The translations under genes were made by a program, and so were the position numbers. From Candidatus Woesearchaeota archaeon (GTDB taxonomy: Archaea; Nanobdellota; Nanobdellia; Pacearchaeales; GW2011-AR1): a DNA stretch of 37,849 nt. Below the pieces are notes generated by a model that was given only the letters and a program-made list of their open reading frames with translations, searched no databases and was not told where the DNA came from. Positions 2,976-24,304 of the stretch are shown in pieces. The stretch covers positions 1-37,849 of the forward strand of contig CAZBOY010000004.1 of NCBI GenBank assembly GCA_964493655.1, read 5' to 3'. Numbering within the stretch: the first letter of the stretch is position 1; each line of letters starts with the position of its first letter.

Positions 2976-3152
2976 GCTGACTGATATGTCTTGGCAACTC
3001 TTGCGGAAAATTATCCTTATCTATTTTACTTTTTGGGATAATTTTCACCAGAAGTTTTGCAGAGCAGTAATCATGAATATTTTTAAGAATGTCTTAGTAT
3101 TATTAAATTTAATTTTGATTATTCAAATCTCAAAACGATTTGACTTTTTCAA
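2976..3152 (+). repeat. Repeat family A, copy a (candidate structured RNA or MITE-like element)
   Basis: It has the conserved 5' block GCTGACTGATaTGTCTTGGCAACTCTTG. The hairpin is GAAAATTATCC (3006-3016) / GGATAATTTTC (3036-3046). The conserved 3' block is TTTTGCAGAGCAGTA followed by T-runs. It is homologous to the copies at 16771, 17838(-) and 19105(-). Confidence 0.75.
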
Positions 3153-3162
3153 CAAAGTCAAG

Positions 3163-3834
3163 CTAGTCCTCCAGTAACCCCCTAAACTTTTTAATCTTAT
3201 TATCATCAAATTTCTTTATTTGTTTTAATTCTTCTTCTGACAAATTAAAAATTTTGTTAAGGGTTTTGTGTTGTTCTAAAAGTTGTTTTGCAATTGTTGG
3301 GCCAATTCCTGGAAAGCCCTCGAGGATAAATTGCTTTTGTTCTTGGGGTGTAGGAAGAGACTTTGAGGGTCTTATTGAAAGTTCTGTTTTAGGTTTGTCT
3401 TGTTTTTTTGCAAGGAGGATTAGATAGTCTGCTGTTTCTTCTTGATTTTCTGTAAACAGAACAGGTATTTTATACTGAAGAATTATCGAAAGTATCATGC
3501 CTTTTGTTTGGTTGTCGAAATTGCTGTCTTGTTCTTTTCCTTCGATTATCAAAAGATATTCTGGATATTTTTTTATTTCTGAGAGTTGCATAAAAAGACG
3601 TTTGTTAATCATGCTTGAGATAAAATCTGAAAAAGTTTTTCTTTCTATTGCAGTTGTTCCAATAAGATAGTCTGCTATTTCTAATTTTTCAAATTTAATA
3701 TTTGCTTTTCTTTCTAAAAGGCAAGAGGCAATTAGGGATTGTTTTTCCCGGGTGTCTATTATGATGGGGGTTTTGTTTGGTTGGGGGGGTTTTGGTTCAG
3801 GGGTTTTGTCGAAGATGTTGTGGATGGGTTTCAT
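3163..3834 (-). CDS. xpf: XPF/ERCC4-type structure-specific nuclease with C-terminal HhH2 (stand-alone Hef nuclease-like)
   Basis: ERCC4 signature: IIIDTRE, ADYLIG, AIERKTFSDF. The C-terminus has GFPGIGPTIAKQLL helix-hairpin-helix repeats. Confidence 0.85.
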   Translation of the reverse strand: MKPIHNIFDKTPEPKPPQPNKTPIIIDTREKQSLIASCLLERKANIKFEKLEIADYLIGTTAIERKTFSDFISSMINKRLFMQLSEIKKYPEYLLIIEGKEQDSNFDNQTKGMILSIILQYKIPVLFTENQEETADYLILLAKKQDKPKTELSIRPSKSLPTPQEQKQFILEGFPGIGPTIAKQLLEQHKTLNKIFNLSEEELKQIKKFDDNKIKKFRGLLED

Positions 3835-4238
3835 TTTTGTTTTATCTTTCCAATAAAATCATAGAGAATAATTCCAAGGATAATTAGAACAACTGCAACA
3901 GTATAAATCATATGAGTTACTGTAGAGGGATATTCGCTGTTTCTAAATCCTCCAAGTATGAAGAGAAATTCATCAGCCACTAATCCAAGTCCTACTGCAG
4001 ATAATCCCAGATAAAGTTTTTTATGAAAGTTTCCAAAGAGGACTGCAATAAGGACAATTACTAAAATAGTAATCCCATAATAAAAATGATGTAGTTCATA
4101 GCCAAATAACATTAAATCTAAATCATTGTAATAGGTTAATATTCTTGTTATGGTTATTGTTAATATAAAAATTATCAAGAAGCTTAGAAACTTGTTTTTT
4201 ATCTGAAAAGGGTTTTTATTATCGTCTCTTTCTTTCAT
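3831..4238 (-). CDS. Hypothetical multi-pass membrane protein
   Basis: 135 aa with about four hydrophobic helices. It has a 4-nt overlap with the downstream xpf start, which suggests an operon. Confidence 0.55.
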   Translation of the reverse strand: MKERDDNKNPFQIKNKFLSFLIIFILTITITRILTYYNDLDLMLFGYELHHFYYGITILVIVLIAVLFGNFHKKLYLGLSAVGLGLVADEFLFILGGFRNSEYPSTVTHMIYTVAVVLIILGIILYDFIGKIKQK

Positions 4239-4334
4239 GGTTTTCTTAATTTTCGGTTTTATTTAAACTTAATCTTAAACAAATAGAATATAAATCCTTA
4301 TAAAGATATTTGCAGTGATTTTTTTATTAGGGTT

Positions 4335-5075
4335 TTATTTACAATTATCCCAGATAAAATCAAAGAATTTTTTATAGCCGTCTGCAAGTTTTTGATTTTT
4401 CATTACAAACATAAGGGGATTTTCCTGTAATTTTCCAGGTTCTACTCCCACGAATGTCACAACATACGGACCGAAAATATCAACCGTAGTATTACTTGAA
4501 TATTTTTTTGGAAGAAATTTATAAGGTTTTCCAACAATTTTTAAGATTTCTGGTTTTTGTTGTTTTACCTCATAATCAAAAAGATGTTTGAAGTTTATCC
4601 CTAATTTCTTTCTTTCTCTTTCAAAATTTGGGAGAAAATATTGCAGTCTTTCATCAAGCCAGAAGGCTTTTGCACCTAAGAAATAAACAGTTTGTTTTGT
4701 TTTGAGAATGTCTTGGAGATAGTTTTTGAAACCTTCAATTCCTCGATAAAAATAAGCCTCTTCTTTTTCTCCTTGTGATTCAAATTTTTGTGTCATTTCA
4801 AAAAGGGCTTTATTTAATTTTTCTTCTTTTTCTTTTAAAAGTTCTAAAAGCCGTCGAGGATTTATTGGTTTGAAATTTTTCTCTCCTTTTGTAAATGAAT
4901 CTGAGGTAAGGCCTTTTTCTGATAATTTGTTTAGGGCATCATAAACATTTCTACGATGAACTCCTGATTTATTTGAAATTTCTTGCACAGATGCTTCCCC
5001 TGTTTTTAGAAGAGTTTCATAAATCTTTGATTCATTTTGGCTTAGTCCGAGTTCTTTCAATAATTCTTCGTGCAT
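4335..5075 (-). CDS. TrmB-family transcriptional regulator
   Basis: N-terminal winged HTH (LGLSQNESKIYETLLKTGEASVQEISNKSGVHRRNVYDALNKLSEKGL) followed by a coiled-coil and a C-terminal domain. TATA-like box at 5095-5104 on the minus strand. Confidence 0.8.
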   Translation of the reverse strand: MHEELLKELGLSQNESKIYETLLKTGEASVQEISNKSGVHRRNVYDALNKLSEKGLTSDSFTKGEKNFKPINPRRLLELLKEKEEKLNKALFEMTQKFESQGEKEEAYFYRGIEGFKNYLQDILKTKQTVYFLGAKAFWLDERLQYFLPNFERERKKLGINFKHLFDYEVKQQKPEILKIVGKPYKFLPKKYSSNTTVDIFGPYVVTFVGVEPGKLQENPLMFVMKNQKLADGYKKFFDFIWDNCK

Positions 5076-5111
5076 GTTTTATTTACGTTGTTTTAGTTTA
5101 TATTTGTTTTG

Positions 5112-5128
5112 GTGGTGATTGCCACCAC
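5112..5128. promoter_or_regulatory. Palindrome GTGGTG-N5-CACCAC between divergent promoters (candidate TrmB operator)
   Basis: Perfect 6-N5-6 inverted repeat just upstream of the TATA box of the TrmB-like gene. It is GC-rich in an AT-rich spacer. Confidence 0.4.
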
Positions 5129-5289
5129 AAGTGTTTAAGTATATAGAATATTAGTAACTATTAACAAGTCGTGACAGATGTTACGGCTTAAGGAGAAAAA
5201 TAAAATGGAAACAAATAATGAAAAACAAATGAGAATGAAAAACTTAGTTGTGACTCAAAAAAATAATATGAAAGGAGGTAATAGATAAA

Positions 5290-5691
5290 ATGGAATCAAA
5301 AAAATTATCAGAACTTCATATACAGGCCGTAGGTCGTCCAGGAAATTTTGCTAGTGTATCTAAATTAGCTAAACTTGTTGAAGAATCAGATATTCAAGTT
5401 TTTTGGAATGAAACAACCAGCAGAGAACCAAAAATGGTTTTAGAGGATTTCGGTCCTTATGCGGAATGTAGGCCTGGGCAGACTGAAGATTTTTATGGTA
5501 AGGATAAAGTTACACAACCTAAATCAAGAGTAGGATATAGTTTACCAAGAAGAAATCCCCGAGAAGGGTCTGAAGAATGTGATGAATATGCAACTTTTAG
5601 TTATGCAGATCAATGGACTGGGATAACTTTTAACTTGCATAAATCAACTTCAGGGTATAGAGAGTTAAGATGCAAATTTAGTTCAGATTGA
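5290..5691 (+). CDS. Hypothetical soluble protein
   Basis: 133-aa ORF preceded by GGAGGT 8 nt upstream. No motif recognised. A 27-codon ORF (5205-5288) with its own AAGGAG lies immediately upstream. Confidence 0.45.
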   Translation: MESKKLSELHIQAVGRPGNFASVSKLAKLVEESDIQVFWNETTSREPKMVLEDFGPYAECRPGQTEDFYGKDKVTQPKSRVGYSLPRRNPREGSEECDEYATFSYADQWTGITFNLHKSTSGYRELRCKFSSD

Positions 5692-5705
5692 TTTTTATTT
5701 AATAA

Positions 5706-5737
5706 AAGGGGGGCAAAATAGTTCCCCTTCTTTTTTA
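5706..5737 (+). terminator. Hairpin plus T-run terminator-like element
   Basis: AAGGGG (5706-5711) pairs with CCCCTT (5724-5729) and is followed by CTTTTTTATTTTT, directly after the 5290-5691 ORF. Confidence 0.4.
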
Positions 5738-5796
5738 TTTTTATTTAGAAATCCCCCGCCCATAACATTTAATAACTTTAGAGATGTTTTTTATTT

Positions 5797-6132
5797 ATGG
5801 CATCAGAAATTACTTTAAAATTTATTTTCTTTGGTTTGATTGCTTTAGCAGTTGTTCTTGAAGTTGTTGGAGATGTTTTTTTCAAAAAATGGTCTATTGA
5901 TAATAAAAATACTCTGCTTTATGCTGGGCTTTTAATTTATTTTATTGGAACTATCTTTTGGGCTATTTCATTAAAATATGAATATTTGTCTAAAGCAATT
6001 TCTATATTTACTATTTTGAATCTAATTATTGTAGTGTTTGTTGGTGTTCTTTATTTTAAGGAAAATTTGTCTTTAATAAATAAGATTGGAATTGGGTTAG
6101 GAATTTTGAGTGTTATTTTTATTGAGGTTTGA
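5797..6132 (+). CDS. SMR/DMT-superfamily small 4-TM transporter-like protein
   Basis: 111 aa with four TM helices. An acidic residue sits in TM1 (LEVVGDVFFKKWS), as in SMR/ArnE-like proteins. Confidence 0.55.
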   Translation: MASEITLKFIFFGLIALAVVLEVVGDVFFKKWSIDNKNTLLYAGLLIYFIGTIFWAISLKYEYLSKAISIFTILNLIIVVFVGVLYFKENLSLINKIGIGLGILSVIFIEV

Positions 6133-6151
6133 TAAGGGGGTGAAACTAATT

Positions 6152-7705
6152 TCAAAACAACCTCTCCTGTTTTTCGTCAGAGTTATTTAAATTTCCCATT
6201 TCATTTTTAATCTCATCAATTGCTTTGTGCATGCTTTTTTCTTTTGCCTGTGAAGCGTAATGATAAGATTCATCTCGTGTGTTTTTTGTGATGAGGATTT
6301 TTAGAGAGCCGGGGGCTAATCTAGCTGTTCTTCCTCTTCGCTGAATAGAACGTATTGCACTTGGAACTGGTTCGTAAAAAATAACTTCGCTTACTTCAGG
6401 AATATCAAGTCCTTCTTCACCTATTGAAGTTGCAATCAGAATGTTGAATTTCCCTATTGAAAAGTCTTTTATGACTTCTTGTTGTTCTTTTTGTTTTAGG
6501 CCAGTTGTTTTACCGTCGTAGTGTTTTTTAATTGTCTGTCCTACAAAAATTACTGGTTTTATTCCTGGAATTTTTTCTAAATCTTTTTTTATTTTATTTA
6601 CAGTATCTCTATATTGGGCAAAGACAATTATTTTTGCATTAGGGCTTTCTTTTATCTGGTTTTTTATTATTTCTGTAAGTTTCTTTAGTTTAGGATGTTC
6701 GAAATTAATTGTTAGTGCAAGGGTGTAGGCTTTGTTGAATCTTAAATCTCCTGCTAGTTTTTGAGCTGCCTTGGATTTTTTCTCTTCAGATTCAGTATAT
6801 ATTTTTTTTAGGTAATCAATAAATGAGGAAATTGTTTGTGTTTCAAGAAGTTCCATTGCGTGTTGGATTTTTATTGCTTGAGCGCAAACCGAGGCTGAGA
6901 CAAACATGTTGATGGATTTTGTTCCTGAAGAAAGGGCTCTGAAAATTTTTCTTTGGCAATCAAGAAGAGTTTTTTTAGAAGCATAACCAAAGAGAACTTT
7001 TCTGCTTTTAAGTTCCCCAACTTTTTTATCATAAATTTCTTTTAACAATTGTCTTATTTCTTCAAATTCTGGAGGAAAGTCAACTTCTATTTTTTCAAAT
7101 TCTAATTCTTGAAGATAGGGTTTTATGTCTTCAGAATCTCTTGTTCTTATTTCAACTGATTGAATCCCAAGATTCTCACATACTTTGGAGATTGTTTTTT
7201 TATCTGCTCCTGGACTTGCAGTTAAGCCGAGAACTCGGGAGTTTTGTGTGTGCTGTTTATATTTTTGGGCAATGAAATTATAAGCATAATTTTTGAGACA
7301 TCTGTGGCATTCGTCGAAGATTAACAGCGAGACATTTTCTAAGGTGTAGAGGTTTTTTTTCAAGTCATTGGAAATGCACTGGGGTGTTGAAAAAACCCAT
7401 TCAGCTGTCTGCCAGATTTTTTTTCTTTTTTCAGCAGGGGTTTTGCCTGTGAAAATTTGCATGTCTGCCCAGTCTTCTGGAATATTTTTTTTAAAAGAAT
7501 TAAAATGCTGTTCAACTAGGGGGCGGGTTGGTGCGAGGATGAGAATTTTTTCAAGGGGGAATTGTTTGAATCTGTCAATTGCAAGCATAAGAGAAATTAG
7601 GGTTTTGCCTGTGCCTGTTGGAAGAACAACAAGACAGTTTTCTTTTTTGCAAGTTTCAAAAATATTTTCCTGATATGCTCTTGGGGGGATTTTTAGTTCT
7701 TTCAT
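6152..7705 (-). CDS. hef: Hef/FANCM-type SF2 helicase (helicase part only)
   Basis: Motif I LPTGTGKT, motif II FDECH, motif III TASPG, motif VI QRRGRTAR. An inserted helical domain lies between the RecA lobes. There is no C-terminal nuclease domain. Confidence 0.85.
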   Translation of the reverse strand: MKELKIPPRAYQENIFETCKKENCLVVLPTGTGKTLISLMLAIDRFKQFPLEKILILAPTRPLVEQHFNSFKKNIPEDWADMQIFTGKTPAEKRKKIWQTAEWVFSTPQCISNDLKKNLYTLENVSLLIFDECHRCLKNYAYNFIAQKYKQHTQNSRVLGLTASPGADKKTISKVCENLGIQSVEIRTRDSEDIKPYLQELEFEKIEVDFPPEFEEIRQLLKEIYDKKVGELKSRKVLFGYASKKTLLDCQRKIFRALSSGTKSINMFVSASVCAQAIKIQHAMELLETQTISSFIDYLKKIYTESEEKKSKAAQKLAGDLRFNKAYTLALTINFEHPKLKKLTEIIKNQIKESPNAKIIVFAQYRDTVNKIKKDLEKIPGIKPVIFVGQTIKKHYDGKTTGLKQKEQQEVIKDFSIGKFNILIATSIGEEGLDIPEVSEVIFYEPVPSAIRSIQRRGRTARLAPGSLKILITKNTRDESYHYASQAKEKSMHKAIDEIKNEMGNLNNSDEKQERLF

Positions 7706-7739
7706 ATAAATTTAAAAGTTAGGGGTTTTATATAGGTTT

Positions 7740-8476
7740 ATGAGGGTTGCATTTTATAATCAGATGTTTGGATTTGATGGTCGAAGTTTATACACTTTTT
7801 TAAGAGACCATAAGACAATTCATTTTAATAAAACTCCTGATATGGCTTATGTTAGAAGTGAGATTTCTAGAACAATAGATATAATAAAAAAATCAAAAGC
7901 AGAGATAGTTGGAATTTGTGAAATTTTAGAAGGGCAGGAAGAGAAGCTTAGAAAGTTGTTAAAAGAGATTGGATATAAATATGTATTTTTTGGAACAGGG
8001 CATTTATTGACTTGTGGATTAAAAGTTAAGATTGCTCTCGCGTCTAAGCTAAAATGTGTTCAGAAAAATGTTGAGGGTTTTCCAGTTGAGAGTAGAACGG
8101 GGGGGGCGGAGGGATTGTTTCTTGTTATTTTCCTAAGGAGAAATTTTATTTTATTGTCACTCATTTAAGTTTTCCAAAAAGAGAAATGTTTTCAAAACAG
8201 GAAAAATTTGTGAATAATTGTATTAAATCTTTTGGAAAAAGAATTATTCTTGCTGGAGATTTTAATATTGATTATGAAGGCTTAAAAAAATATTTTCCAG
8301 GTCTAGTGTTTCTCTCTGGAAGGATTAAAACTCTTTTTTCTCAGGGTGTTTTGAAATTATGGTCTAACAAAGATGTAGATCATATTCTTGCAAGGGGGAT
8401 TAAAGCTAAGGCTTGCGGATATTTAATAGGATATTCAGACCATAAACTTGTTTGGGCGGATTTAAAATTTGATTAG
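7740..8476 (+). pseudogene. Endonuclease/exonuclease/phosphatase (EEP) family gene, frameshifted at a G8 homopolymer
   Basis: The N-terminal ORF (7740-8168) and C-terminal ORF (8186-8476; GDFN, SDHKLVW motifs) belong to one EEP fold. The second frame is open from 8096. One extra G in the run at 8099-8106 would fuse the two frames. Confidence 0.7.
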
Positions 8477-8510
8477 TAATCTTTATAAACTTTCGAGATT
8501 TAATTTATCT

Positions 8511-8714: not shown

Positions 8715-8802
8715 TTTTTTGGAGTATTCATTTAAGGAATTTATTAATTAGATAAATTATTCTTTTATTTAGTGCCTTGTTTAATTTTTTATATTCGGAA
8801 AA

Positions 8803-9444: not shown

Positions 9445-9531
9445 GGGCTTTCTATGCTTGGGGTTTTTATAAACTGTTTGTTTTGACTATCCTACTATAG
9501 AAATATATTTAAATGGGGATTTTATTAGTTC

Positions 9532-9822: not shown

Positions 9823-9833
9823 TTGTGTTTTAA

Positions 9834-10064
9834 ATGGAAGAAGATAATAGGGGTTTTATTAGTTATGAAGTGCCTTATAATCCTGAACTTATGTTAAATT
9901 CTATAGTATCTTCTGGGATGACAATTGGGCCTGCAGGGATTATTCGTGATGAGAAGAAAAACCATCAAGGAACTTATAATGATGAAGAATTTACTTTAGA
10001 GGTTCTTAAAAAAGGTTCGCTTCTTGATTGTCTTGCTAAAGAATTGCATCTTATAAGAATATAA
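9834..10064 (+). CDS. Hypothetical protein
   Basis: 76-aa ORF with no motifs recognised. Confidence 0.35.
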   Translation: MEEDNRGFISYEVPYNPELMLNSIVSSGMTIGPAGIIRDEKKNHQGTYNDEEFTLEVLKKGSLLDCLAKELHLIRI

Positions 10065-10169
10065 CTATGAATTTTAATGTAGGATTTTCTAAAAATTAAT
10101 AATAAAAATGTAAGGGGGAAGGTTTGATTTTGATTTTTGAGATGTTTTGGTTTGGAGATATTTTCAGCT

Positions 10170-10186
10170 TCGATGGCGGCGGGGAA
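10170..10186 (+). repeat. 17-nt GC-rich direct repeat TCGATGGCGGCGGGGAA, copy 1
   Basis: Exact copies occur at 12975-12991 and 13666-13682. Confidence 0.9.
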
Positions 10187-10193
10187 CTAAAAC

Positions 10194-10208
10194 CGAAAGA
10201 TTTAATAA
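10194..10208 (+). promoter_or_regulatory. BRE/TATA-like promoter (CGAAAG ATTTAATAA) for the RelE-type TA pair
   Basis: Centred 26 nt upstream of the ATG at 10230. The same ACCGAAAG + TATA arrangement follows repeat copy 2. Confidence 0.5.
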
Positions 10209-10229
10209 TTTCCTTTTTATCTAATTAAT

Positions 10230-10403
10230 ATGGAACAGATGAATGAGTTAAAAAGAAGATTAGATAATTTAACTATAGAGATAACTGTTCTGAAAGATAG
10301 ATTTGAAGATCATTTTTTGACAGAAGAAGAAAAAGGAATGATTGATGAGGCTATTCAGGAGAAAGAAGATGGGCTGTTGATTGATTCTTCGGAAGTTTTC
10401 TAA
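10230..10403 (+). CDS. Putative antitoxin (57 aa, not in the supplied ORF track)
   Basis: Read manually: MEQMNELKRRLDNLTIEITVLKDRFEDHFLTEEEKGMIDEAIQEKEDGLLIDSSEVF. The stop lies 1 nt before the toxin ATG. Confidence 0.6.
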   Translation: MEQMNELKRRLDNLTIEITVLKDRFEDHFLTEEEKGMIDEAIQEKEDGLLIDSSEVF

Positions 10404-10404
10404 A

Positions 10405-11886: not shown

Positions 11887-11937
11887 TTATTAAAAGTAAG
11901 GGGAAAAGCTTAAAAATACCTTTTTCTTTAATTTTTG

Positions 11938-12948
11938 ATGGTGTACATACATGTAAAAAGAATTGGGGATAAGAACTATTATACCTTAAGAATCTCGGTT
12001 AGAGAGGGTAATAAAGTTATAACAAAAGATTTGTGCAATCTTGGATCAGACATAACAAAAATAAATATAGACAATCTTGAAAATAAATATAAAAAAGAGA
12101 TTAGAAAATCCTATAAAACCATTAAAAAATTTTTAGATTCAAATTATTACCTTGAAAAAATTAAAAAATTAAAACTTAAGAGTGATGTTTATTTCAAAAA
12201 AGAACAACTCGAAAATATCGAGGCTATTCAGTTGCATTTTAATTCAAAATTTAAGAAATTAAATAAACTAACTCAAGAAGAAGCTTTTGAAAACTTTTTA
12301 ATAAATTTTGCAGTTAATAGCACCTCAATTGAAGGGAACACTATTACATTTAAGGAAGCTGAGCGACTTTTAAAAGAAGAGATTATACCTAAAAATAGGA
12401 CCTTAAGAGAGGTTTATGATTTGACAAACACAAAAAAAGTTTGGACATTTCTTCAGAAAGAAAAACCAAAAATTAATTTGAATTTAATTGAAGGAATTCA
12501 CGATAGATTATTAGAAAATATTGATAACAGAAAAGGGTTTAGAAATCATGATATAAAAATATTGGGCCAGCCATTCAAACCATCTCCTGCAAGATATGTT
12601 AGGGATGACTTGAAAATTTTATTAAATTGGTATCAAAAAAATAAGAAAAATTTCCACCCCCTTGCATTGATTGCTTTTTTTCATCATAAGTTTGAAAATA
12701 TCCATCCATTTTCAGATGGTAATGGCCGGACAGGAAGAATATTAATAAATTATATTCTTATCTCACTGAACTATCCCCCTTTGATTATTTCAAGAAGATT
12801 TAGAAAAGAATATTTAGATTCAATGAATCAGGCAGATAAGTCTCTAAATCAAAGTTTATTGAACACTGATTTAAAATCTTATGCAAAACTGTTGAATTTT
12901 ATTTATTCTCAATTTAAGTATTCTTATTGGGACTTATTTCTTTTTTGA
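11938..12948 (+). CDS. fic: Fic/DOC family protein (AMPylase-type) with an intramolecular inhibitory motif
   Basis: Fic core HPFSDGNGRTGR. An upstream STSIEG fits the (S/T)xxxE(G/N) inhibitory helix motif. TATA-like box about 24 nt upstream. Confidence 0.85.
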   Translation: MVYIHVKRIGDKNYYTLRISVREGNKVITKDLCNLGSDITKINIDNLENKYKKEIRKSYKTIKKFLDSNYYLEKIKKLKLKSDVYFKKEQLENIEAIQLHFNSKFKKLNKLTQEEAFENFLINFAVNSTSIEGNTITFKEAERLLKEEIIPKNRTLREVYDLTNTKKVWTFLQKEKPKINLNLIEGIHDRLLENIDNRKGFRNHDIKILGQPFKPSPARYVRDDLKILLNWYQKNKKNFHPLALIAFFHHKFENIHPFSDGNGRTGRILINYILISLNYPPLIISRRFRKEYLDSMNQADKSLNQSLLNTDLKSYAKLLNFIYSQFKYSYWDLFLF

Positions 12949-12974
12949 TTGTCTATTCTGATGCTCTATCTGCG

Positions 12975-12991
12975 TCGATGGCGGCGGGGAA
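12975..12991 (+). repeat. 17-nt GC-rich direct repeat, copy 2 (21-nt identity with copy 3)
   Basis: TGCGTCGATGGCGGCGGGGAA is shared with copy 3. It is followed by ACCGAAAGG and the TATA-like AATAAATAC, 25 nt upstream of the ATG at 13038. Confidence 0.9.
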
Positions 12992-13037
12992 AAGTTAAGA
13001 CCGAAAGGAATAAATACTAAATTTCTTTTTTTATTGT

Positions 13038-13654: not shown

Positions 13655-13665
13655 TTTTGAGTGCG

Positions 13666-13682
13666 TCGATGGCGGCGGGGAA
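13666..13682 (+). repeat. 17-nt GC-rich direct repeat, copy 3
   Basis: Exact TCGATGGCGGCGGGGAA, 12 nt after the hepT stop and immediately upstream of element B2. Confidence 0.9.
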
Positions 13683-13689
13683 TTAAACT

Positions 13690-13800
13690 TAACAACAAAC
13701 TGAAGTCGGCAACTTTGTCGCTTGTTATAGGACGCGCCTGGCGGCGCTAAGTCGCCTTCGGCGATTTGTGAGTGTTGCAGGGTTTTGTTGTTGTGGGGTT
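13690..13800 (+). repeat. Repeat family B, copy B2
   Basis: The outer arms AACAACAAA / TTTGTTGTT enclose three hairpins: GGCAAC-TTT-GTCGC (13708-13721), GCGCC-TGGC-GGCGC (13734-13747) and TCGCC-TTCG-GCGA (13752-13764). A G/T-rich tail follows. Confidence 0.7.
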
Positions 13801-13867
13801 TTTAGTGATTTGTAACTATTTTTAGGTAATCGCAAACTTTAAAAAACATGTTTGTTGTATGTGGGTT

Positions 13868-14341
13868 ATGAGAAAAACACTAACAAAAATAATTGGCGGG
13901 ATTTCCCTTGTAGCTTCGTCTTTTTTGCCTCTTGGTTGCATCCCATCAGAAGACCAGGGTGTGAATGATGCCCGGCTTCTTGGTTTTGGCCTTGCTGGGA
14001 TTGCAGCGACAACAAATAATCCAGACACAGCGAGGGCGGCGGCTTTGGGTGCTGATCTTGCGAATAGGCGAGGTGATGATCTCGCGAGTTATCATGCGGC
14101 TCGGGAGGGGAGGAGTACTGTTACTGTGAATGTTAATAGTCAAAATAATGATTCAAAACCTAATGTTACTGGTCCGATAATTGTAGTAGATGGAGAAAAA
14201 CTTCATTATGTTGATGAAAATGGAAAATGGTATTATGCAGATAGAAATGAGGATAAAGGAACTTTTTTTTATGTTGATCCTTCAAAAGGTTTTATGTCAG
14301 TTCCATCCCCAAATAAAGGCTTTATTTCTATGAATAGATAA
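13868..14341 (+). CDS. Putative lipoprotein, HAAREG-motif family
   Basis: Signal peptide with lipobox-like LPLGC. It has the motif YHAAREG. TATA-like box 25 nt upstream of the ATG at 13868; an alternative ATG is at 13859. Confidence 0.55.
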   Translation: MRKTLTKIIGGISLVASSFLPLGCIPSEDQGVNDARLLGFGLAGIAATTNNPDTARAAALGADLANRRGDDLASYHAAREGRSTVTVNVNSQNNDSKPNVTGPIIVVDGEKLHYVDENGKWYYADRNEDKGTFFYVDPSKGFMSVPSPNKGFISMNR

Positions 14342-14372
14342 TATTTATAAACATCTTTACTCTTAGTTATTT

Positions 14373-16724
14373 ATGTTACAAAAACGAGGGATAATTTCAC
14401 TCTTTGAGATTAGTTTATTAATAATCTCTATTTTTGCATTCGGTTTTATATTTAATACAAACTTAGTTGAAGCTGGTACTGGGAAATGGATTATTGAAAA
14501 AACAGGAGAAGGGGGTTATAATGCACGGGGATTAGGTGTTGGAGAAAACCCCCTTGGCCAAGAAGTATTTAGTAGTAAAGAAGCAGCAGATAATAAAATA
14601 TTTTCTTTTTGGAAAGGAAATAAAGTTTCATCAACAGCGACACCCACTCCAGCAAGTATTGCAGCTGCAACTAAAAGCACAACCAACACTTTTAAAGTTA
14701 TCAAAGATTTGGTAATTACTCCTCAAGGGGGAAATGCTATTTCATTAGCAAAAAATTCTAAGTTTACTTTAGATGGAAACATTTTAACTTATGGTGGAAA
14801 GACATATACAATAGATAATAGTGAAATAAATAAATTAGTCAACACCGGACTTATTGAAAAGCAAGCTGTTGCAGGTTCTCAAGTCTCAACCCTCTTCGGA
14901 AAAATGAATTGGGGATGGGGGCATATTATTCAGGGGGCGACTTGGGCTGTTGCTGTTGTTGGAGCTATTCAGCTTCTTGGTCCGATTATGGGATTAAAGC
15001 AAGAAACAACAAATACTCTTTCTATTGCAGCAGGGGCAGGGATTATGGCTGGGAAAACAGCATGGACTCTTTGGGGAAAACAGGGAGTTTGGCCTGGAAA
15101 AATCGGTGGGGGGTTGGTTGGTGGTAAAGGACAATTTCCAATTGGCGCTACAGGAATCGGCATCGGAACAGCTGTTCTAGTTTTCATCCTCTTGTACAAA
15201 GAAACAGAATATCGTATTGTAACATTTAATTGCAGGCCTTGGCAAGCTCCGGTTTCGGGAGATGATTGTGAAAAATGCAACAGCGAGATACTTCCTTGTT
15301 CTGAATATAGATGTAAGGCACTTGGGCAGAGCTGTGAGCTTGTTAATCCTGGAACAGAAGAGGAAAGATGTATTAATGCTTATCGCGGGGATACTGAACC
15401 ACCTGTGCTGACTCCTGATGAAAATGTGCTGACTGTTGGGCATTCTTATAAAAATGTTAAGAAACTTCCACCAGGTCCTGGATTTACAATTGCTCGTGAT
15501 GATTCTGCTGATGGATGTATTAAAGCATTTACACCTCTTAGTTTTGGATTTACATCGCTAGAGCCTGCCCAGTGTAAAATAGACCGTGAGAGTACAGACC
15601 AGGTTGGAAAAGATGCATTTGATGCAATGTCTTACTGGGTTGGTGGGAGTAATTTGTATAAGTACAATCACACAGAAGTTTTCTCTTTACCTGGACCTGC
15701 GAATCTTGCTGGTGAAAATTTAACAATTACCAATGACGGTCAATGGACATTTTTCGTTCGTTGTCGGGACTTTAATGGAAATGAAAATGAGGCAGAATAT
15801 GCAATTAGGTTTTGTGTTGACCCGTCACCAGATACTACCCCCCCTGTTGTAATGGCAACTTCAATGGAGAATAATGGTTATGTTCCGGCAGATACTGATA
15901 AGGCAAATGTTGATTTTTATATAAATGAACCTTCAACTTGTAAGTGGAGTTTTGAAGACCAGAGTTATGTATCAATGGAAAACACAATGGTTTGTGCAGG
16001 GCAAGTTTATGAAATGAATTCCATGTTGCTTTATACTTGTAAAACCGAGCTCACTGGAATTTCGCGAGATGGAAGTGATTATTTCATAAGATGTAAAGAC
16101 CAGCCAGGCAAACCTGAAAATGACAGAATGGTAATGCAAAATAGTTTTAAATTTTCATTAACAGGAACTACACAATTAATAATTAGAAATCTTCAACCAA
16201 ATGAAACAATCTACGGCTCGACAGACCCTGCAAAAATAGAGTTGAGTGTTGAAACTTTGTTTGGTGCTGAAAATGGAAAGTCGATTTGCTTTTATTCTAC
16301 AACTGATAATGACGGGGATTATATAAAATTCTTTGATACCGGGGATGTTGTGCATAAGCAGAGACAAGACCTGACAACAGGAGATTATGTTTATTATTAC
16401 AAGTGTGTTGATGCAGGCGGGAATGTTGCAAAGGACTCAACTTCATTTAGTGTTGTTGTCGACACTTCTGCACCTGTTGTTGCGCGTGTTTATGAAGAGG
16501 CAGGGAAGTTGAAACTTGTAACTGTGAAAAATTCTGAGTGTGCATATACTTTTGATAATTGTGATTTTACTTTTGAAGAAGGAACTAATATGCCGACAGC
16601 AGGAACAAAGATGCATATTGCTGATTGGAAACAAGACAAAACTTATTATATAAAATGCAGAGATGAATTCAAAAATGAAGAAGCTGATTGTGCTATTGTT
16701 GTGAGGCCTAGTCGGAAGTTGTGA
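14373..16724 (+). CDS. Large membrane-anchored cysteine-rich surface protein with four tandem ~100-aa repeats
   Basis: N-terminal anchor and about three further hydrophobic/Gly-rich helices (aa ~185-275). A Cys-knot-like segment follows (CRPWQ...CEKCNSEILPCSEYRCKALGQSCE). There are four repeats ending FFVRCRDFNGNEN, YFIRCKDQPGKPEN, YYYKCVDAGGNVA and YYIKCRDEFKNEE. Confidence 0.7.
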   Translation: MLQKRGIISLFEISLLIISIFAFGFIFNTNLVEAGTGKWIIEKTGEGGYNARGLGVGENPLGQEVFSSKEAADNKIFSFWKGNKVSSTATPTPASIAAATKSTTNTFKVIKDLVITPQGGNAISLAKNSKFTLDGNILTYGGKTYTIDNSEINKLVNTGLIEKQAVAGSQVSTLFGKMNWGWGHIIQGATWAVAVVGAIQLLGPIMGLKQETTNTLSIAAGAGIMAGKTAWTLWGKQGVWPGKIGGGLVGGKGQFPIGATGIGIGTAVLVFILLYKETEYRIVTFNCRPWQAPVSGDDCEKCNSEILPCSEYRCKALGQSCELVNPGTEEERCINAYRGDTEPPVLTPDENVLTVGHSYKNVKKLPPGPGFTIARDDSADGCIKAFTPLSFGFTSLEPAQCKIDRESTDQVGKDAFDAMSYWVGGSNLYKYNHTEVFSLPGPANLAGENLTITNDGQWTFFVRCRDFNGNENEAEYAIRFCVDPSPDTTPPVVMATSMENNGYVPADTDKANVDFYINEPSTCKWSFEDQSYVSMENTMVCAGQVYEMNSMLLYTCKTELTGISRDGSDYFIRCKDQPGKPENDRMVMQNSFKFSLTGTTQLIIRNLQPNETIYGSTDPAKIELSVETLFGAENGKSICFYSTTDNDGDYIKFFDTGDVVHKQRQDLTTGDYVYYYKCVDAGGNVAKDSTSFSVVVDTSAPVVARVYEEAGKLKLVTVKNSECAYTFDNCDFTFEEGTNMPTAGTKMHIADWKQDKTYYIKCRDEFKNEEADCAIVVRPSRKL

Positions 16725-16770
16725 GAATAAAATTAATTTTTAGTAATCATAAAATTGTTTGTAGAGTTAG

Positions 16771-16930
16771 AGCAGGGGTTTTATCTTGGCAACTCTTGAA
16801 GAAAATCTTTCAGGTTTATTTTATGATTGGGAAGATTTTCCGCAAAGGTTTTGAAGAGCAGTAGATACGAATCTTTTATAAAAATGTTTAGAGATTAACA
16901 AATTTAAAATTCATTTTGACTTTTTCAATA
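16771..16930 (+). repeat. Repeat family A, copy b
   Basis: ATCTTGGCAACTCTTGAA, hairpin GAAAATCTTTC (16801-16811) / GGAAGATTTTC (16830-16840), TTTTGAAGAGCAGTA, and the ATTTTGACTTTTTCAA tail shared with copy a. Confidence 0.75.
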
Positions 16931-16979
16931 GATTTCTAATAACAACAAACTTTAAATATCTTGTTTTCTATTTAAGAAA

Positions 16980-17135
16980 ATGAATAAAAATGCAGGTGTG
17001 TTGTGGTTGAGGATTTTGGGGGCTGGGTGTGGGAGCACGGGATTTGTATTGTTAGCGGTTGGTGGGCAAATAAATAATGTTATTGGTGCAGGGTTGGTAG
17101 GTATTGGAACTGTGCTGATTGCGTCAGGAGCTTAA
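16980..17135 (+). CDS. Small Gly-rich 2-TM membrane protein (51 aa, not in the ORF track)
   Basis: Read manually: MNKNAGVLWLRILGAGCGSTGFVLLAVGGQINNVIGAGLVGIGTVLIASGA. The TATA-like CTTTAAATATC is centred 25 nt upstream. Confidence 0.45.
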   Translation: MNKNAGVLWLRILGAGCGSTGFVLLAVGGQINNVIGAGLVGIGTVLIASGA

Positions 17136-17136
17136 G

Positions 17137-17301
17137 ATGATTAGTGAAAATATAATGCAGGTGATAAATATAATTGTTTTAATAGTTATGTTTGGGAGTT
17201 TGTCTTATGTGGTCTATAAAAGGAAGTTTGATGTATCTATTGGAATTGGATTAATAATTGTGGTTTACATAATATTTAAATATGTGCTGAATATATTTTA
17301 A
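17137..17301 (+). CDS. Small 2-TM membrane protein
   Basis: The ATG is 1 nt after the previous stop. The sequence is hydrophobic (MISENIMQVINIIVLIVMFGSLSYVVYKRKF...). The stop is 1 nt before the next ATG. Confidence 0.45.
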   Translation: MISENIMQVINIIVLIVMFGSLSYVVYKRKFDVSIGIGLIIVVYIIFKYVLNIF

Positions 17302-17302
17302 T

Positions 17303-17794
17303 ATGGTATTGTTTGACTGGCCGATATTTACAGAGGGGATTTTACCTTTCTTACTTGTGTTTGTTTTGATATTTGCGATTTTGCAAAAGAGTAAGATTCT
17401 TGGCGACGGGAAGGCGCAGATTGATGCACTTATTAGTTTGGCGATTTCACTTATTTTATTAACTGTTCCTGTTGCGCGGGATATTGTTGTTGGATTAACT
17501 CCTTGGCTTGCTGTTGGAACTGTTGTGATTTTGGTTTTCTTTATTTTATATGGTTTTGTTGCAGGAGATTTGTCTGCGGGAAATATGCCTAAAGGATTGA
17601 AAATTGCTTTTGGGGTTTTAGCAGCTGTTTTTGTTTTTGGAGTTGTGGTTTATGTTACTGGGTTTTGGTCGACTATTGAAGGATGGTTTTCAGGAGATAG
17701 TGGTTTGTTTGCAAATATTTTTATGTTGTTAATTATTGGCGGGGCTGTTGCTGTTGCTGTTGCAACTGGGAAAAAGGGTGGCGATAAGGGGTAG
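17303..17794 (+). CDS. Paralogous multi-pass membrane protein 1 (FAILQK family)
   Basis: LPFLLVFVLIFAILQKSKILGDGK is shared with the two downstream paralogs. There are about four TM helices. Confidence 0.6.
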   Translation: MVLFDWPIFTEGILPFLLVFVLIFAILQKSKILGDGKAQIDALISLAISLILLTVPVARDIVVGLTPWLAVGTVVILVFFILYGFVAGDLSAGNMPKGLKIAFGVLAAVFVFGVVVYVTGFWSTIEGWFSGDSGLFANIFMLLIIGGAVAVAVATGKKGGDKG

Positions 17795-17837
17795 GTAATT
17801 TTTAAGGGGGATGATGATTAATTAAGGGGGAGAATTA

Positions 17838-17975
17838 ATTTATTAATCTTAAAACATTTTTGTAAGAGATTATACTTAATGTTTTGCAAAGTGTTTATGG
17901 AAATTCAACCAATTATATAAGACAAGGTTGAATTTCTTAAAGTGCTGCTAGGATAATCTCTATACTATAAGTCGA
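17838..17975 (-). repeat. Repeat family A, copy c (most diverged, inverted)
   Basis: Hairpin GAAATTCAACC (17900-17910) / GGTTGAATTTC (17926-17936). The flanks are alignable to copy d. Confidence 0.6.
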
Positions 17976-18072
17976 TGAGTATTCAGTAATTATTATAAAT
18001 ATTAAATTAAGGATATTTTTTCTGTAAAGAGATTTACATAAGTTTTATAAATAACAATTCTTTTAATTAATC

Positions 18073-18597
18073 ATGGCTTGGTATATGAGTATTACAAATA
18101 TATTAAACACTTGGGCTGACATGGGTGTGTTTGCTTATGTGATTCCTTTTCTTTTAATATTCGCTGTTGTTTTTGCGATTTTGCAAAAGACTAAACTTCT
18201 TGGAGATAATAACCCTTCTGTTCAGGCAATTGTTGCTCTTGCAGTTGGTTTGCTTTCCTTGCAGTTTGATTTTGTTTCAACTTTTTATGCAAATATTTTT
18301 CCTAAATTTGGAATTGGACTTGCTGTTTTTTTAGTGTTGATTATTTTACTTGGATTTTTTTATACTGGTTCTGAGGGAGAACCTAAAACAGCAATTAAAT
18401 GGATTGGATGGTTTACAGGTATTGCAGTTGTTGTTTGGGCTCTTTCAAGTTGGGACTTTTGGCAAGATAATTGGTCAATTTCTTGGTGGATACAGGAGTA
18501 TTTTTGGCCGATAATAATTCTTGCAGCAGTTGTTGCGGTAATTGTAGTTGTTGCTAAATCCGGAGATAGTTCAACAAAAACACCTACAGGACCTTAA
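18073..18597 (+). CDS. Paralogous multi-pass membrane protein 2 (FAILQK family)
   Basis: IPFLLIFAVVFAILQKTKLLGDNN. TATA-like box 25 nt upstream. Confidence 0.6.
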   Translation: MAWYMSITNILNTWADMGVFAYVIPFLLIFAVVFAILQKTKLLGDNNPSVQAIVALAVGLLSLQFDFVSTFYANIFPKFGIGLAVFLVLIILLGFFYTGSEGEPKTAIKWIGWFTGIAVVVWALSSWDFWQDNWSISWWIQEYFWPIIILAAVVAVIVVVAKSGDSSTKTPTGP

Positions 18598-19071
18598 ATG
18601 GCAATTGAATTAGCAGGACTTACACTTTTTATGCCTATACTTAGTTTTTTACTTGTGTTTGTTTTGGTTTATGCTGTTCTTGCAAAGACAGAAGTTTTGG
18701 GGGACAATAAATCTGTTCATCTTTTGATATCTTTTATCCTCGCTGTTTTTTTTATTGTTGAGGCATCTCTTGTGGATTTTATTAATTTTACTTCTGCGTG
18801 GTTTGCTGTTTTTTTAGTTTGTGTGTTTTTAATTTTTGTTCTTATTGGTTTTGTTGGTAAAGATGCTTTGGGTGCAATTACTGGAAACAAGGCTGTTGCG
18901 TGGGTTTTGTTAGCTGCGTTAGTAATCTTTTTTATAATTTCTTCTGCATATACATTTAATTGGGCTGTGAATTGGGGGGCTCTTTGGGACGGGGCTTATA
19001 CTGATTGGTTTTCAATGGGAGTCTTGGCTGTTGTTGCTGTTATTGTGAGCTGGGTTTTGGCTAAGAAGTAG
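18598..19071 (+). CDS. Paralogous multi-pass membrane protein 3 (FAILQK family)
   Basis: LSFLLVFVLVYAVLAKTEVLGDNK. The start abuts the previous stop. Confidence 0.6.
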   Translation: MAIELAGLTLFMPILSFLLVFVLVYAVLAKTEVLGDNKSVHLLISFILAVFFIVEASLVDFINFTSAWFAVFLVCVFLIFVLIGFVGKDALGAITGNKAVAWVLLAALVIFFIISSAYTFNWAVNWGALWDGAYTDWFSMGVLAVVAVIVSWVLAKK

Positions 19072-19104
19072 GTGGGGGAATTATTTTGGAGGGGGGAATT
19101 ATTT

Positions 19105-19235
19105 ATTAATTGACAAAAATTTTTGTAGATGATTTATTCCTAATGCTCTGTAAAGTCTTTGCGGAAATTTATCCTAAACATATTAAGATATGGATAAATT
19201 TCTTCAAGAGTTGCCAAGACAAATCAGTCAGCTCA
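19105..19235 (-). repeat. Repeat family A, copy d (inverted)
   Basis: The reverse complement reads GCTGACTGATTTGTCTTGGCAACTCTTGAA. Hairpin GAAATTTATCC (19164-19174) / GGATAAATTTC (19192-19202). It lies downstream of, and on the same strand as, the 19321-20004 gene. Confidence 0.75.
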
Positions 19236-24301: not shown

Positions 24302-24304
24302 ATT

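Follow-up and report, generated by a model that had tools for sequence, protein, structure and literature searches.

The window, a 37,849-nt stretch of DNA that was analysed as a whole, carries four genuine copies of a previously undescribed intergenic repeat of about 170 bp, family A, whose host is a tiny uncultivated DPANN archaeon, Pacearchaeota-like. We put about even confidence in family A being a set of old, lineage-restricted, non-coding, dispersed intergenic repeats with MITE-like anatomy and a hairpin that is template-switched yet constrained. Loop flips and hairpin types assorting independently of the flanks are hallmarks of replication template switching, and the compensatory stem changes may owe as much to errors in DNA copying as to RNA selection. 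Transcription of the family, possibly from its TATA-like end, is plausible.

Copies in the window and their anatomy

A covariance model built from the four copies matches the window at 2984-3110 (+), 16779-16905 (+), 17836-17958 (-), and 19099-19224 (-) only, with E-values of 2e-18 to 2e-22. A model built from 14 copies finds the same four places and none besides, and the 21-mer TCTTGGCAACTCTTGAAGAAA, with up to three mismatches allowed, has three matches versus zero expected. The model and 21-mer searches bear out the original prediction of four real copies with shared blocks. The units and their parts are as follows.

2943..3112, + strand: copy c1, full unit (14-copy and four-copy model matches, ends located); between convergent genes 2442-2855 (+) and 3163-3834 (-, ERCC4 nuclease)
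2943..2959, + strand: c1 5' inverted end/TATA-like box (TTTGTTAATTATTAAAT)
2989..3003, + strand: c1 conserved 5' block TCTTGGCAACTCTTG
3006..3046, + strand: c1 hairpin, arms GAAAATTATCC/GGATAATTTTC, 19-nt loop, forward orientation
3056..3069, + strand: c1 conserved 3' block TTTGCAGAGCAGTA
3099..3112, + strand: c1 3' inverted end ATTATTAAATTTAA
16733..16907, + strand: copy c2, full unit (model matches, ends located); between 14373-16724 (+) and a 51-aa gene at 16980-17135 (+)
16784..16798, + strand: c2 conserved 5' block TCTTGGCAACTCTTG
16801..16840, + strand: c2 hairpin, arms GAAAATCTTTC/GGAAGATTTTC (one U-G pair), 18-nt loop, forward orientation
16850..16863, + strand: c2 conserved 3' block TTTGAAGAGCAGTA
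17834..18010, - strand: copy c3, full unit (model matches, ends located); between paralogous small membrane-protein genes 17303-17794 (+) and 18073-18597 (+), anti-oriented to both
17939..17953, - strand: c3 5' block TCCTAGCAGCACTTT, the most diverged version
17900..17936, - strand: c3 hairpin, arms GAAATTCAACC/GGTTGAATTTC, 15-nt loop, forward orientation
17877..17890, - strand: c3 3' block TTTGCAAAACATTA
19097..19274, - strand: copy c4, full unit (model matches, ends located); between convergent genes 18598-19071 (+) and 19321-20004 (-)
19205..19219, - strand: c4 5' block TCTTGGCAACTCTTG
19164..19202, - strand: c4 hairpin, arms GAAATTTATCC/GGATAAATTTC, 17-nt loop, forward orientation
19141..19154, - strand: c4 3' block TTTACAGAGCATTA

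The unit measures about 166-178 nt, above the size first given. The copies had been recognized correctly, but their 5' start had been set about 30-40 nt too far downstream, and the missed stretch contains the TATA-like end and the motif TCATCGACTTGT. The 3' limit of the unit is ATTAATAAATTTAA; the 3' extensions formerly assigned to c1 and c2 do not belong, and cover a 13-nt motif (TTGACTTTTTCAA) identical in these two copies only. Gene positions were stated correctly for c1, c2, and c4, and c3 has no same-strand gene upstream. The spacers around c1-c4 are 307, 255, 278, and 249 nt long, and the window median is 77 nt.

The unit is bounded by inverted AT-rich ends of about 13-15 nt, arranged as TTAA-WW-TTTATTAAT ... 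ATTAATAAA-W-TTAA. In nearly all copies TTTATTAAT follows TTAA(W)(W) at both ends, mirrored and at fixed distances, and the TTAA could belong to the inverted repeat itself. The direct repeats of 9-12 nt that flank c1, c4, and two further copies (L123a and L173b) fall within the range of shuffled AT-rich sequence. Of the clear inverted-repeat and target-site boundaries originally envisaged for a plain MITE, the inverted ends are present, but no target-site duplication was demonstrated among the flanks examined. The interior is asymmetric, with three conserved blocks (TCATCGACTTGT; TCTTGGCAACTCTTGAAGAAA; TTTCCGCAAA..CTTTnCAGAGCATTA) and a central perfect 11-bp hairpin with a loop of 15-19 nt. Pairwise identity averages 84% over the 5' block, 100% over the outer stem (GAAA/TTTC), and 38% over the 5' variable segment. 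No conserved ORF was found in family A. Loop lengths of 15, 17, 18, and 19 nt disrupt any reading frame across the conserved blocks and the 5' block of some copies contains stop codons; family A is therefore non-coding.

Stem covariation, loop flips, and hairpin exchange

All four 11-bp stems are exactly as originally written, and the observation that the stem changes in sequence while staying complementary holds for the four copies and for the 14-copy set as a whole. Two-sided changes occur at 4 of the 11 stem pairs among the window copies and at six pairs among the 14, so that further copies do carry structure-preserving substitutions. Across the 14 copies, the tested helix (the stem with a 3-bp extension) has 96.9% of its cells paired. 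None of 500 shuffles matches the observed covariation of the whole tested structure, and slid controls are only 28-59% paired. The hairpin is the only helix with support: 8 of the 14 copies have a broken outer helix, and the 5'/3' pairing has p = 0.23. The wobble census counts seven G-U and five A-C, favouring neither strand, and the bottom strand folds slightly better.

Six variants of the hairpin stem occur, along with three main types of loop. Among 15 copies the loop is forward in nine and reversed in six, and each main type occurs both ways round. Within the orientation groups all loop pairs align forward (51/51), and between the groups 52 of 54 align as reverse complements; reverse-complementing the L123a loop gives the L150 loop at 15/15 positions. 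Hairpin and flank identities show no correlation (rho -0.13), and hairpins are 92-97% identical between copies whose flanks match at 45-72%. Loop inversions and multi-base compensatory changes in perfect hairpins are among the products of template switching (PMC8794818). The original prediction read the compensatory changes as the classic signature of a selected structure, which is unsafe because 6 of the 15 loops are flipped, hairpin types are exchanged between diverged copies, and the wobbles are strand-neutral.

The hairpin core thus evolves as a module that is shuffled relative to its flanks. We attribute this to template switching within and between copies, which would flip loops and copy one arm onto the other, generating the 'compensatory' changes. 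Some constraint must also preserve the hairpin and adjoining blocks, which stay near intact despite an overall identity of 53-83%. RNA hairpins shaped by template switching (Monttinen & Loytynoja 2022, PMC8794818) share with family A the perfect stem, the multi-base compensatory changes, and full loop inversions. The loop inversions reported there, in rRNA and microRNA genes, were rare and typically affected loops of 4 nt (PMC8794818), whereas family A inverts a 15-19-nt loop in 6/15 copies and seems to pass its hairpins between paralogous copies as modules.

At its outer edges (GAAA/TTTC and the adjoining bases) the palindrome is invariant and roughly symmetric, as would suit a dsDNA operator at which a dimeric DNA-binding protein recognises the half-sites TTGAAGAAA / TTTCCGCAA, separated by about three helical turns. 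Such an operator is highly improbable, for protein binding does not call for complementarity, copy by copy, of the inner 7 bp of both arms, which vary between copies of one genome.

Dispersal, age, and transcription

Ten extra copies, making 14 with the window, lie on metagenome contigs that stem from the same or sister populations; c1 is also found in contigs L183 and L184. The copies are intergenic, lie in both orientations beside unrelated housekeeping genes (e.g. aRF1, HisRS, L10e, pilus ATPase), and occupy five convergent, seven tandem, and two divergent spacers. At a syntenic locus with the same gene order (L071), the spacers at the c1, c3, and c4 sites are 0-41 nt and have no model match; the comparison covers these three sites, in a relative too distant for spacer alignment. 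Two copies are decayed, L139b lacking the 5' half and L088b the hairpin, and the orthologous c4 site in the sister-lineage contig L190 retains just the 3' half. Family A is old, because the c4 site is common to L190, distinct copies are at most 83% identical, and the window copies are not most closely related to one another. A search of Rfam, as originally suggested, assigned family A to no known family. Neither the window nor any copy-bearing contig contains a transposase, and an autonomous element with family A ends was not found.

Ten of the 14 copies follow a same-strand gene and five lie between convergent genes. The segment ACAAAAATGTTT yields a T-run on both strands, and a palindromic hairpin usable from either strand fits the strand-neutral wobbles. 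We nevertheless regard it as very unlikely that family A is a non-mobile module encoded by the host, a 3' UTR, terminator, or insulator placed after genes and between convergent genes. Two copies sit in divergent spacers and two in tandem spacers are anti-oriented to both neighbours, the same genes in relatives have spacers of just 0-41 nt, and the inverted ends and asymmetric conserved blocks would be unexplained. Moreover, archaeal transcription termination in general requires T-tracts only.

Among the three options first offered (small RNA, 3' UTR/terminator, MITE-like element), the anatomy favours the last, because of the inverted ends, the dispersed copies of both orientations in housekeeping contexts, the empty sites, and the decayed copies. 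The units would have spread through their inverted ends by transposition in an ancestor of the lineage, and are probably immobile today, as no partner transposase is in view. Against the MITE-like reading, the empty sites in the distant relative could be losses there, the ends are short, AT-rich, and TATA-like, so that their inverted symmetry could reflect promoter/terminator signals, and the divergence is far above that of typical active MITE families. The strong block conservation in old copies is also unexpected of junk, and a functional RNA gene fits it at least as well.

Window genes are leaderless, and in 10 of the 12 promoters examined the TATA box (TTTATAAA or TTTAAATA) starts 28-30 nt before the ATG. 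The gene at 31368 uses TTTATTAAT, the box of family A itself. The copies could be independently transcribed small ncRNA genes, in which transcription from the TTTATTAAT TATA box would start about 28 nt downstream, between CGACTT and RTRG, and give an RNA of about 130-160 nt with the hairpin and conserved single-stranded blocks as functional core. We consider this possible, though rather doubtful. The box-to-core distance is fixed in 12/14 copies, the stem covaries, blocks of 84-100% identity beside a 38% variable segment are typical of a functional RNA scaffold, and these features are kept at 53-83% overall identity; c1 is not a 5' leader, because it lies between convergent genes. However, an RNA gene has no need of a mirrored promoter box and TTAA at its 3' end, and the PWM scores of the element box are moderate, nearly orientation-neutral, and below those of most true promoters. 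Top-strand T-runs past the core are short and poorly conserved, wobbles show no strand preference, no second helix is supported, and a loop complemented in 6/15 copies is contrary to a sequence-specific loop function. The missing Rfam match and the empty c1, c3, and c4 sites in the syntenic relative also speak against it. Under the MITE-like reading, the element would most likely be transcribed, whether its own TATA-like 5' end serves as promoter or transcription of the upstream gene runs on into it. If so, the hairpin would work as an RNA structure irrespective of its sequence, for instance as a 3'-end/stability module usable on either strand.

Comparison with known mobile and palindromic elements

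A published census has reported DPANN genomes with high MITE densities, of about 100 per Mb (PMC11602168), and prokaryotic MITEs have been reviewed (PMC3184786). Among prokaryotic MITEs, the Neisseria Correia, enterobacterial ERIC/RU, and Sulfolobus SM1-SM4 elements share with family A the small size (~170 nt here), non-coding, intergenic, and multi-copy nature, both orientations, inverted ends, presence/absence between relatives, and, putatively, co-transcription and RNA folding. In contrast to these MITEs, family A has no proven target-site duplication or identified parent IS, and its old copies reach at most 83% identity, far from near-identity. Its fold-back is a separate central perfect hairpin not made by the ends, with a loop that flips and a type that is exchanged.

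REP/BIME (RAYT) elements and IS200/IS605-derived PATEs have an extragenic palindrome core and compensatory stem variation, and they often occupy the 3' ends of genes or the spacers of convergent gene pairs. Family A shares all three features, and a Y1 transposase is present in its wider lineage (L190). Mobilisation as ssDNA by a Y1 (HUH, IS200/IS605- or RAYT-type) transposase recognising the hairpin would fit the invariant hairpin core and the lack of an evident target-site duplication. The sister-lineage Y1 transposase (PF01797, E 6e-24) sits precisely on the loop side of the hairpin at the orthologous c4 site, and contigs of that lineage break inside the Y1 IS, suggesting that it is multi-copy. 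We still give this mobilisation little credence. The Y1 IS has its own GC-rich hairpins (CTCCAYCC-TAAA-GGRTGGAG) at both ends, unrelated to that of family A, which is single and central rather than subterminal at left and right ends. Unlike this transposon class, family A has inverted ends; it carries no GTAG-type tetranucleotide at the hairpin foot, and no RAYT or other Y1 gene occurs in the window or on copy-bearing contigs. Its unit also exceeds a REP four- to fivefold in length, with extensive conserved non-palindromic flanks.

Integrons, including the archaeal ones reported in 2022, have attC sites with the core sites R''/R' (RYYYAAC/GTTRRRY). Family A resembles attC in conserving structure over sequence in an imperfect palindrome and in a spacing of about 0.6-1.3 kb with short ORFs between copies (c2-c3-c4, L173, L123). 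It differs in its mixed orientations and in having no R''/R' core sites and no integrase, and the genes between its copies are conserved syntenic pilus-cluster genes, not cassettes.

Copies and anatomy of the family A repeat

The ~170-bp intergenic repeat named family A is present in the window exactly as originally predicted, with four copies, shared blocks and four stems.

Family A copies in the window
2943-3112, + strand: copy c1
16733-16907, + strand: copy c2
17834-18010, - strand: copy c3
19097-19274, - strand: copy c4

The covariance model suggested by the original prediction, built from these copies (R1), matches only the four of them in the window (E 2e-18 to 2e-22), and a model built from 14 sequences (R2) adds no further window match. 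A conserved 21-mer occurs three times in the window versus zero expected. RNAalifold recovers the 11-bp stem from the four copies with four pairs altered on both sides, and single-sequence folds modestly beat shuffles (z -1.4 to -1.9). We then looked beyond the window with a degenerate pattern covering the 5' block and both stem ends. Its sole match in GTDB genomes is a Bacteroides/Phocaeicola coding-region coincidence, and viral contigs gave only chance matches; a 15-mer scan of viral contigs gave 56 matches, all unrelated. In metagenome contigs, most matches are the same Bacteroides/Phocaeicola false positives, and true family A relatives were also recovered. R1 finds 11 more sites, on contigs L088, L112, L123 (two), L139 (two), L150, L173 (two) and L179. 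Separate assemblies hold the same locus in four cases (L088 = L117; L139 = L180 = L181; L150 = L172; window = L067). The tally is 14 full or partial copies and one hairpin-less copy, in unrelated genomic contexts. The copy-bearing contigs are AT-rich and archaeal, with housekeeping neighbours (aRF1, ScpB, HisRS, L10e, NAC, a second T2SSE ATPase), and several come from the same samples as the window organism. Hence, the 15 sites stem from a single population or a handful of sister populations rather than a broad clade. R1 and R2 searches found no copy in relatives with 75-92% ATPase identity. A divergent relative on L180 (3870-4010) has a hairpin of GAAATTCTTCC, a 17-nt loop and GGAAGAATTTC, with an upstream AATTTTTAGTAAT box. 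Its flanking blocks differ from those of family A (R2 E about 1e-3), and it may point to a broader superfamily centred on the hairpin.

Layout of the family A unit, 5' to 3', from 14-15 copies
5' end: TTAA-WW-TTTATTAAT, then a spacer of ~12 nt
Block after the spacer: TCATCGACTTGT(A/G)G
5' variable segment: 12-17 nt, two or three signatures, e.g. GAGCTGACTGAT or AGATTATC; 38% identity overall
5' block: TCTTGGCAACTCTTGAA; mean pairwise identity 84%
Stem: GAAA + 7 variable bp, loop of 15-19 nt, 7 variable bp + TTTC; outer four pairs invariant
3' of stem: CCGCAAA, later CTTTnCAGAGCATTA
Tail: looser; contains ACAAAAATGTTT
3' end: ATTAATAAA-W-TTAA

The window units measure 166-178 nt. In the consensus of the copies, the unit ends mirror each other as terminal inverted repeats (5' end ..TTAAttTTTATTAAT; 3' end, reverse-complemented, ..TTAAaTTTATTAAT), and the interior halves do not. 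These ends are short and AT-rich, and the longest match in single copies is not above shuffles; their support is therefore positional conservation across copies. Because the loop is 15, 17, 18 or 19 nt long, the frame breaks between the conserved blocks, and some 5' blocks contain stop codons. As no frame is kept across the loop, family A is non-coding. A small ORF on either strand was rejected accordingly, its ATG at the reverse complement of CAGAGCAT being present in just 8 of 14 copies. Three further foldings were also rejected. A 5'/3' closing helix has a 9-bp match in c3, yet cognate duplexes are not better than non-cognate ones (14 copies, p = 0.23); the outer GCAA:UUGC helix proposed by RNAalifold is disrupted in 8 of 14 copies; and for a whole-element fold-back, the halves without ends and stem are not significantly reverse-complementary (z about 0).

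Two features adjoin some units. An identical 13-nt TTGACTTTTTCAA lies 10-30 nt past the 3' end of c1 and c2 (3141-3153 and 16917-16929), L173a carries the similar TTGAGTTTTCAA, and the motif beyond c1 and c2 may serve as a T-run terminator or represent a subfamily extension. Runs of 5-10 G, read as C on the element strand, adjoin the 3' end of c3, c4 and L123b, on the convergent gene's strand just past its stop codon (window 17800-17835 and 19072-19098; L123 about 2262-2280). The L190 orthologue does not keep the G run; such runs could have arisen by chance, reflect a target preference or belong to a 3' UTR.

Pairing, loop orientation and exchange of the hairpin

The stem was tested on a MAFFT alignment of 14 copies, with the helix taken as the stem and a 3-bp extension. 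In this helix, 96.9% of cells are paired and six pairs are changed on both sides. None of 500 shuffles equals the covariation of the whole tested structure, and slid controls are 28-59% paired; no other helix is supported among the 14 copies. All 14 hairpin-bearing copies retain at least 10 of the 11 stem pairs, and all except L123a retain 11 when G-U is counted. Since the pairs are kept while the copies are 17-47% diverged outside the stem, some force is needed to maintain the hairpin, which could be selection or frequent arm-to-arm correction.

The loop has two orientations relative to the asymmetric flanks, F in nine copies (including c1-c4) and R in six. Forward alignment of loops is better in 51/51 within-group pairs, and alignment to the reverse complement is better in 52/54 between-group pairs. 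Specifically, reverse-complementing the L123a loop gives the L150 loop at 15 of 15 positions, and doing so with the c1 loop gives 17 of 19 positions of the L179 loop. Both orientations are represented in all three main loop types, hence at least three independent flips. The loop does not fit an inverton, a switch flipped by a recombinase, which requires inverted repeats around a segment long enough for synapsis, an invertase close by and both orientations at a single locus; the loop segment is 15-19 nt, no recombinase gene lies nearby, and the same locus has the same orientation in independent assemblies (window and L067; L088 and L117; L150 and L172; L139, L180 and L181).

The hairpin also varies independently of its flanks. 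Hairpin and flank identity are uncorrelated in rank (Spearman rho -0.13), and hairpins 92-97% identical occur in copies with 45-72% identical flanks. The 5' signature GAGCTGACTGAT is common to c1, c4 and L123a, with a near-identical GAGCTGACGAT in L088a, and these four copies together carry three different hairpin types. The non-Watson-Crick cells comprise seven G-U on the top strand and five A-C, equal to G-U on the bottom strand, favouring neither. A top-strand RNA, which a 3:1 G-U asymmetry in the stem had indicated at first, was rejected on this full census and because 11 of 14 copies fold slightly better as the bottom strand.

Loop inversions and multi-base compensatory changes in hairpins are known as products of replication template switching (PMC8794818). 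The flips, the exchange and the strand neutrality fit such switching, so covariation alone is no proof of RNA selection. The original prediction had taken compensatory change as the mark of a selected structure; the covariation is real, but loop flips, type exchange and strand-neutral wobbles undercut that conclusion. Family A is a natural case of perfect 'covariation' alongside loop inversions and module exchange, and a caution that compensatory change in multi-copy palindromes does not prove a selected RNA structure. We consider it improbable that the hairpin core, instead of being passive, acts as an exchangeable cassette that switches orientation, within a structured RNA family specific to DPANN and borne on a domesticated MITE. 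If it did, a few discrete hairpin 'specificity types' would pass among ~100 copies in the genome, either through template switching from copy to copy or through a hairpin-recognising enzyme, e.g. a Y1/HUH protein, and flipping a loop to its complement would alter the interaction partners of the RNA or DNA.

Insertion history and possible function

Copies of both orientations occupy five convergent, seven tandem (two anti-oriented) and two divergent spacers. The c1, c3 and c4 sites are empty in the syntenic contig L071, where the spacers are 0-41 nt without R1 or R2 match; L071 is distant (~75% ATPase identity). Decayed copies exist, L139b without the 5' half and L088b without the hairpin. The inverted ends, mixed orientations and spacers, unrelated neighbours, decayed copies and empty L071 sites argue for a transposon-like origin. 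TTAA lies at or beside both ends in most copies and, being palindromic, is possibly part of the inverted repeat. Longer flanking direct repeats (11 nt in c1, 12 nt in L173b, 10 nt in L123a) are within the shuffled range and inconsistent in position. No transposase is encoded in the window or on copy-bearing contigs. Copies are at most 83% identical, the window copies being no nearer to one another than to copies elsewhere, and L190, a sister-lineage contig with a neighbouring-gene ortholog 60% identical, already carries an element at the c4 site. An active MITE is thus disfavoured by the lack of a proven target-site duplication and of a nearby transposase, by the low identity and by the shared c4 site. 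We conclude with moderate confidence that family A is an old MITE-like repeat with hairpin and blocks still constrained. The nearest relatives found (ATPase 92% and 83% identical; 62% or less for the 227-aa neighbour) could not serve to identify empty sites, their contigs being either too short or too diverged. A composite transposon or invertible pilin cassette bounded by c2 and c3/c4 was rejected, since L071 keeps the gene order without the elements and the ORF enclosed by the two inverted L123 copies has no homology to window genes.

The c4 orthologue in L190 retains the loop, 3' arm and 3' tail and lacks the 5' half. Adjoining its loop side is an IS200-like element (L190 1369-1990, JGI Ga0268279_1019655) with a Y1 transposase gene (PF01797, E 6e-24, 1377-1823, - strand) flanked by the hairpins CTCCACCC-taaa-GGGTGGAG and CTCCATCC-taaa-GGATGGAG (= CTCCACCCtaaaGGGTGGAG, CTCCATCCtaaaGGATGGAG). 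Contigs L191-L194 end within this IS, suggesting that it is multi-copy. Hairpin-recognising HUH transposases are thus present in the lineage, and the family A hairpin can serve as an insertion site. As the IS hairpins are unrelated to the family A hairpin, they are no evidence that this enzyme moves family A.

Among named elements, MITEs share with family A the small non-coding size (<~500 bp), terminal inverted repeats and dispersed copies with insertion polymorphism. REP/RAYT elements have a 20-40-nt palindrome, a conserved GT(A/G)G foot and an associated RAYT gene. Family A does not fit them; its stem is flanked by TTGAA and CGCAA without a GTAG foot, the unit of ~170 nt has conserved asymmetric flanks, and the window has no Y1 gene. 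IS200/IS605-derived PATEs carry subterminal LE/RE hairpins as in the resident IS and no inverted ends, whereas family A has a single central hairpin and inverted ends, and the IS200-like hairpins of the lineage (CTCCAYCC-TAAA-GGRTGGAG) are unrelated to it. Integron attC sites have R''/R' core sites, uniform array orientation and an adjacent integrase; family A differs in these respects, with mixed orientations, syntenically conserved intervening genes and no integrase in the window. Family A joins the known class of small dispersed palindrome-bearing repeats, and published work already gives MITE densities of ~100 per Mb for DPANN genomes (PMC11602168).

The window genes are leaderless, with a TATA box beginning 28-30 nt before the ATG at 10 of the 12 promoters examined, and one gene uses exactly TTTATTAAT, the family A 5' box. 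The 5' end accordingly resembles a local promoter in its sequence, with a predicted start site at CGACTT|RTRG, and conservation of the blocks next to a weakly conserved variable segment is hard to square with neutral decay; both count toward function. However, most true promoters outscore the box, which does almost equally well when read in reverse, and its 3' mirror image is better explained by an inverted repeat than by a promoter. The main rival to the MITE-like reading is that the copies are independent sRNA genes, which we regard as unlikely. Guide sRNAs of the C/D-box or H/ACA type have RUGAUGA/CUGA or ACA boxes, a K-turn and variable guides, unlike family A, in which the internal loop beside the stem (AA/CG) is conserved. 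CUGACUGAU is present in three copies only, L088a having CUGACGAU, and no C box or ACA box is conserved among the copies. As for Rfam, which the original prediction named as a check, no Rfam 15 family reaches the gathering threshold in the whole window. At E<=10, region 16700-19300 gives two chance-level matches, off the conserved core and hairpin of every copy, and no snoRNA match falls on the family A core.

DPANN archaea have tiny, streamlined genomes, and we know of almost no non-coding elements characterised experimentally in them. Family A offers a handle on DPANN genome dynamics, and possibly on RNA-level regulation, because it sits in very long spacers, outlasts lineage splits and keeps a perfect hairpin. 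The loop flips, the cassette exchange and the DPANN setting merit most attention. Such repeats may also add to assembly fragmentation; several copy-bearing contigs are 1-7 kb, with some copies near contig ends.

Host and other features of the window

The window has a G+C content of 32%, no tRNA gene and archaeal proteins, including an ERCC4 nuclease, a Hef-like helicase, a TrmB regulator, a FlaI/PilB-type ATPase, an A24 prepilin peptidase and three small membrane proteins that are paralogues. The best ATPase homologues are MAG proteins annotated as Nanoarchaeota or Pacearchaeota. Together with the gene order common to the window and L071, they identify the window, by sequence similarity, as part of the chromosome of a Pacearchaeota-like DPANN archaeon. 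The organism is found again in ENA ERZ27248922, ERZ27248897 and ERZ27248965 and in JGI 3300005645 and 3300028193. A Fic/DOC protein (11935-12948) and a nucleotidyltransferase + HEPN pair (24403-25322) are also encoded. The block at ~10-17 kb, including a 783-aa Big_13 surface protein, is missing from the syntenic region of L071 and hence is a variable island beside the pilus-like cluster. GC skew on the + strand is positive (+0.08 to +0.51) in all 1-kb bins except 4001-5000 (-0.02), independent of gene orientation. The window begins and ends (1-60 and 37790-37849) with 60-nt inverted repeats that are 97% complementary and contain the palindrome CCCTACAGCAAGCTGTAGGG. We rejected a linear replicon bounded by such repeats, as L186, another assembly of this locus, departs from the window past ~37804 and carries on in different sequence with a continuing ORF; given this read-through, an assembly artefact is the probable origin of the terminal repeat.

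Five spacers of 372-558 nt exceed those holding family A and contain no copy of it (window median 77 nt).

Long spacers without family A
9823-10380
22759-23179
27642-28013
30851-31367
34300-34757

A second, GC-rich intergenic repeat, GCGTCGATGGCGGCGGGGAA(n)TTAA(A/G)ACCGAAAG, unrelated to family A, lies directly past gene ends on the + strand at 10167-10191, 12972-12996 and 13663-13687. A tandem pair of 59-nt units (24303-24361 and 24371-24429) is located upstream of the nucleotidyltransferase/HEPN gene pair. A 69-nt repeat with CCAAAACCTCTGCGGTTTTG starts three + strand ORFs (31374-31442, 32298-32366 and 33730-33798), which are probably paralogous genes.
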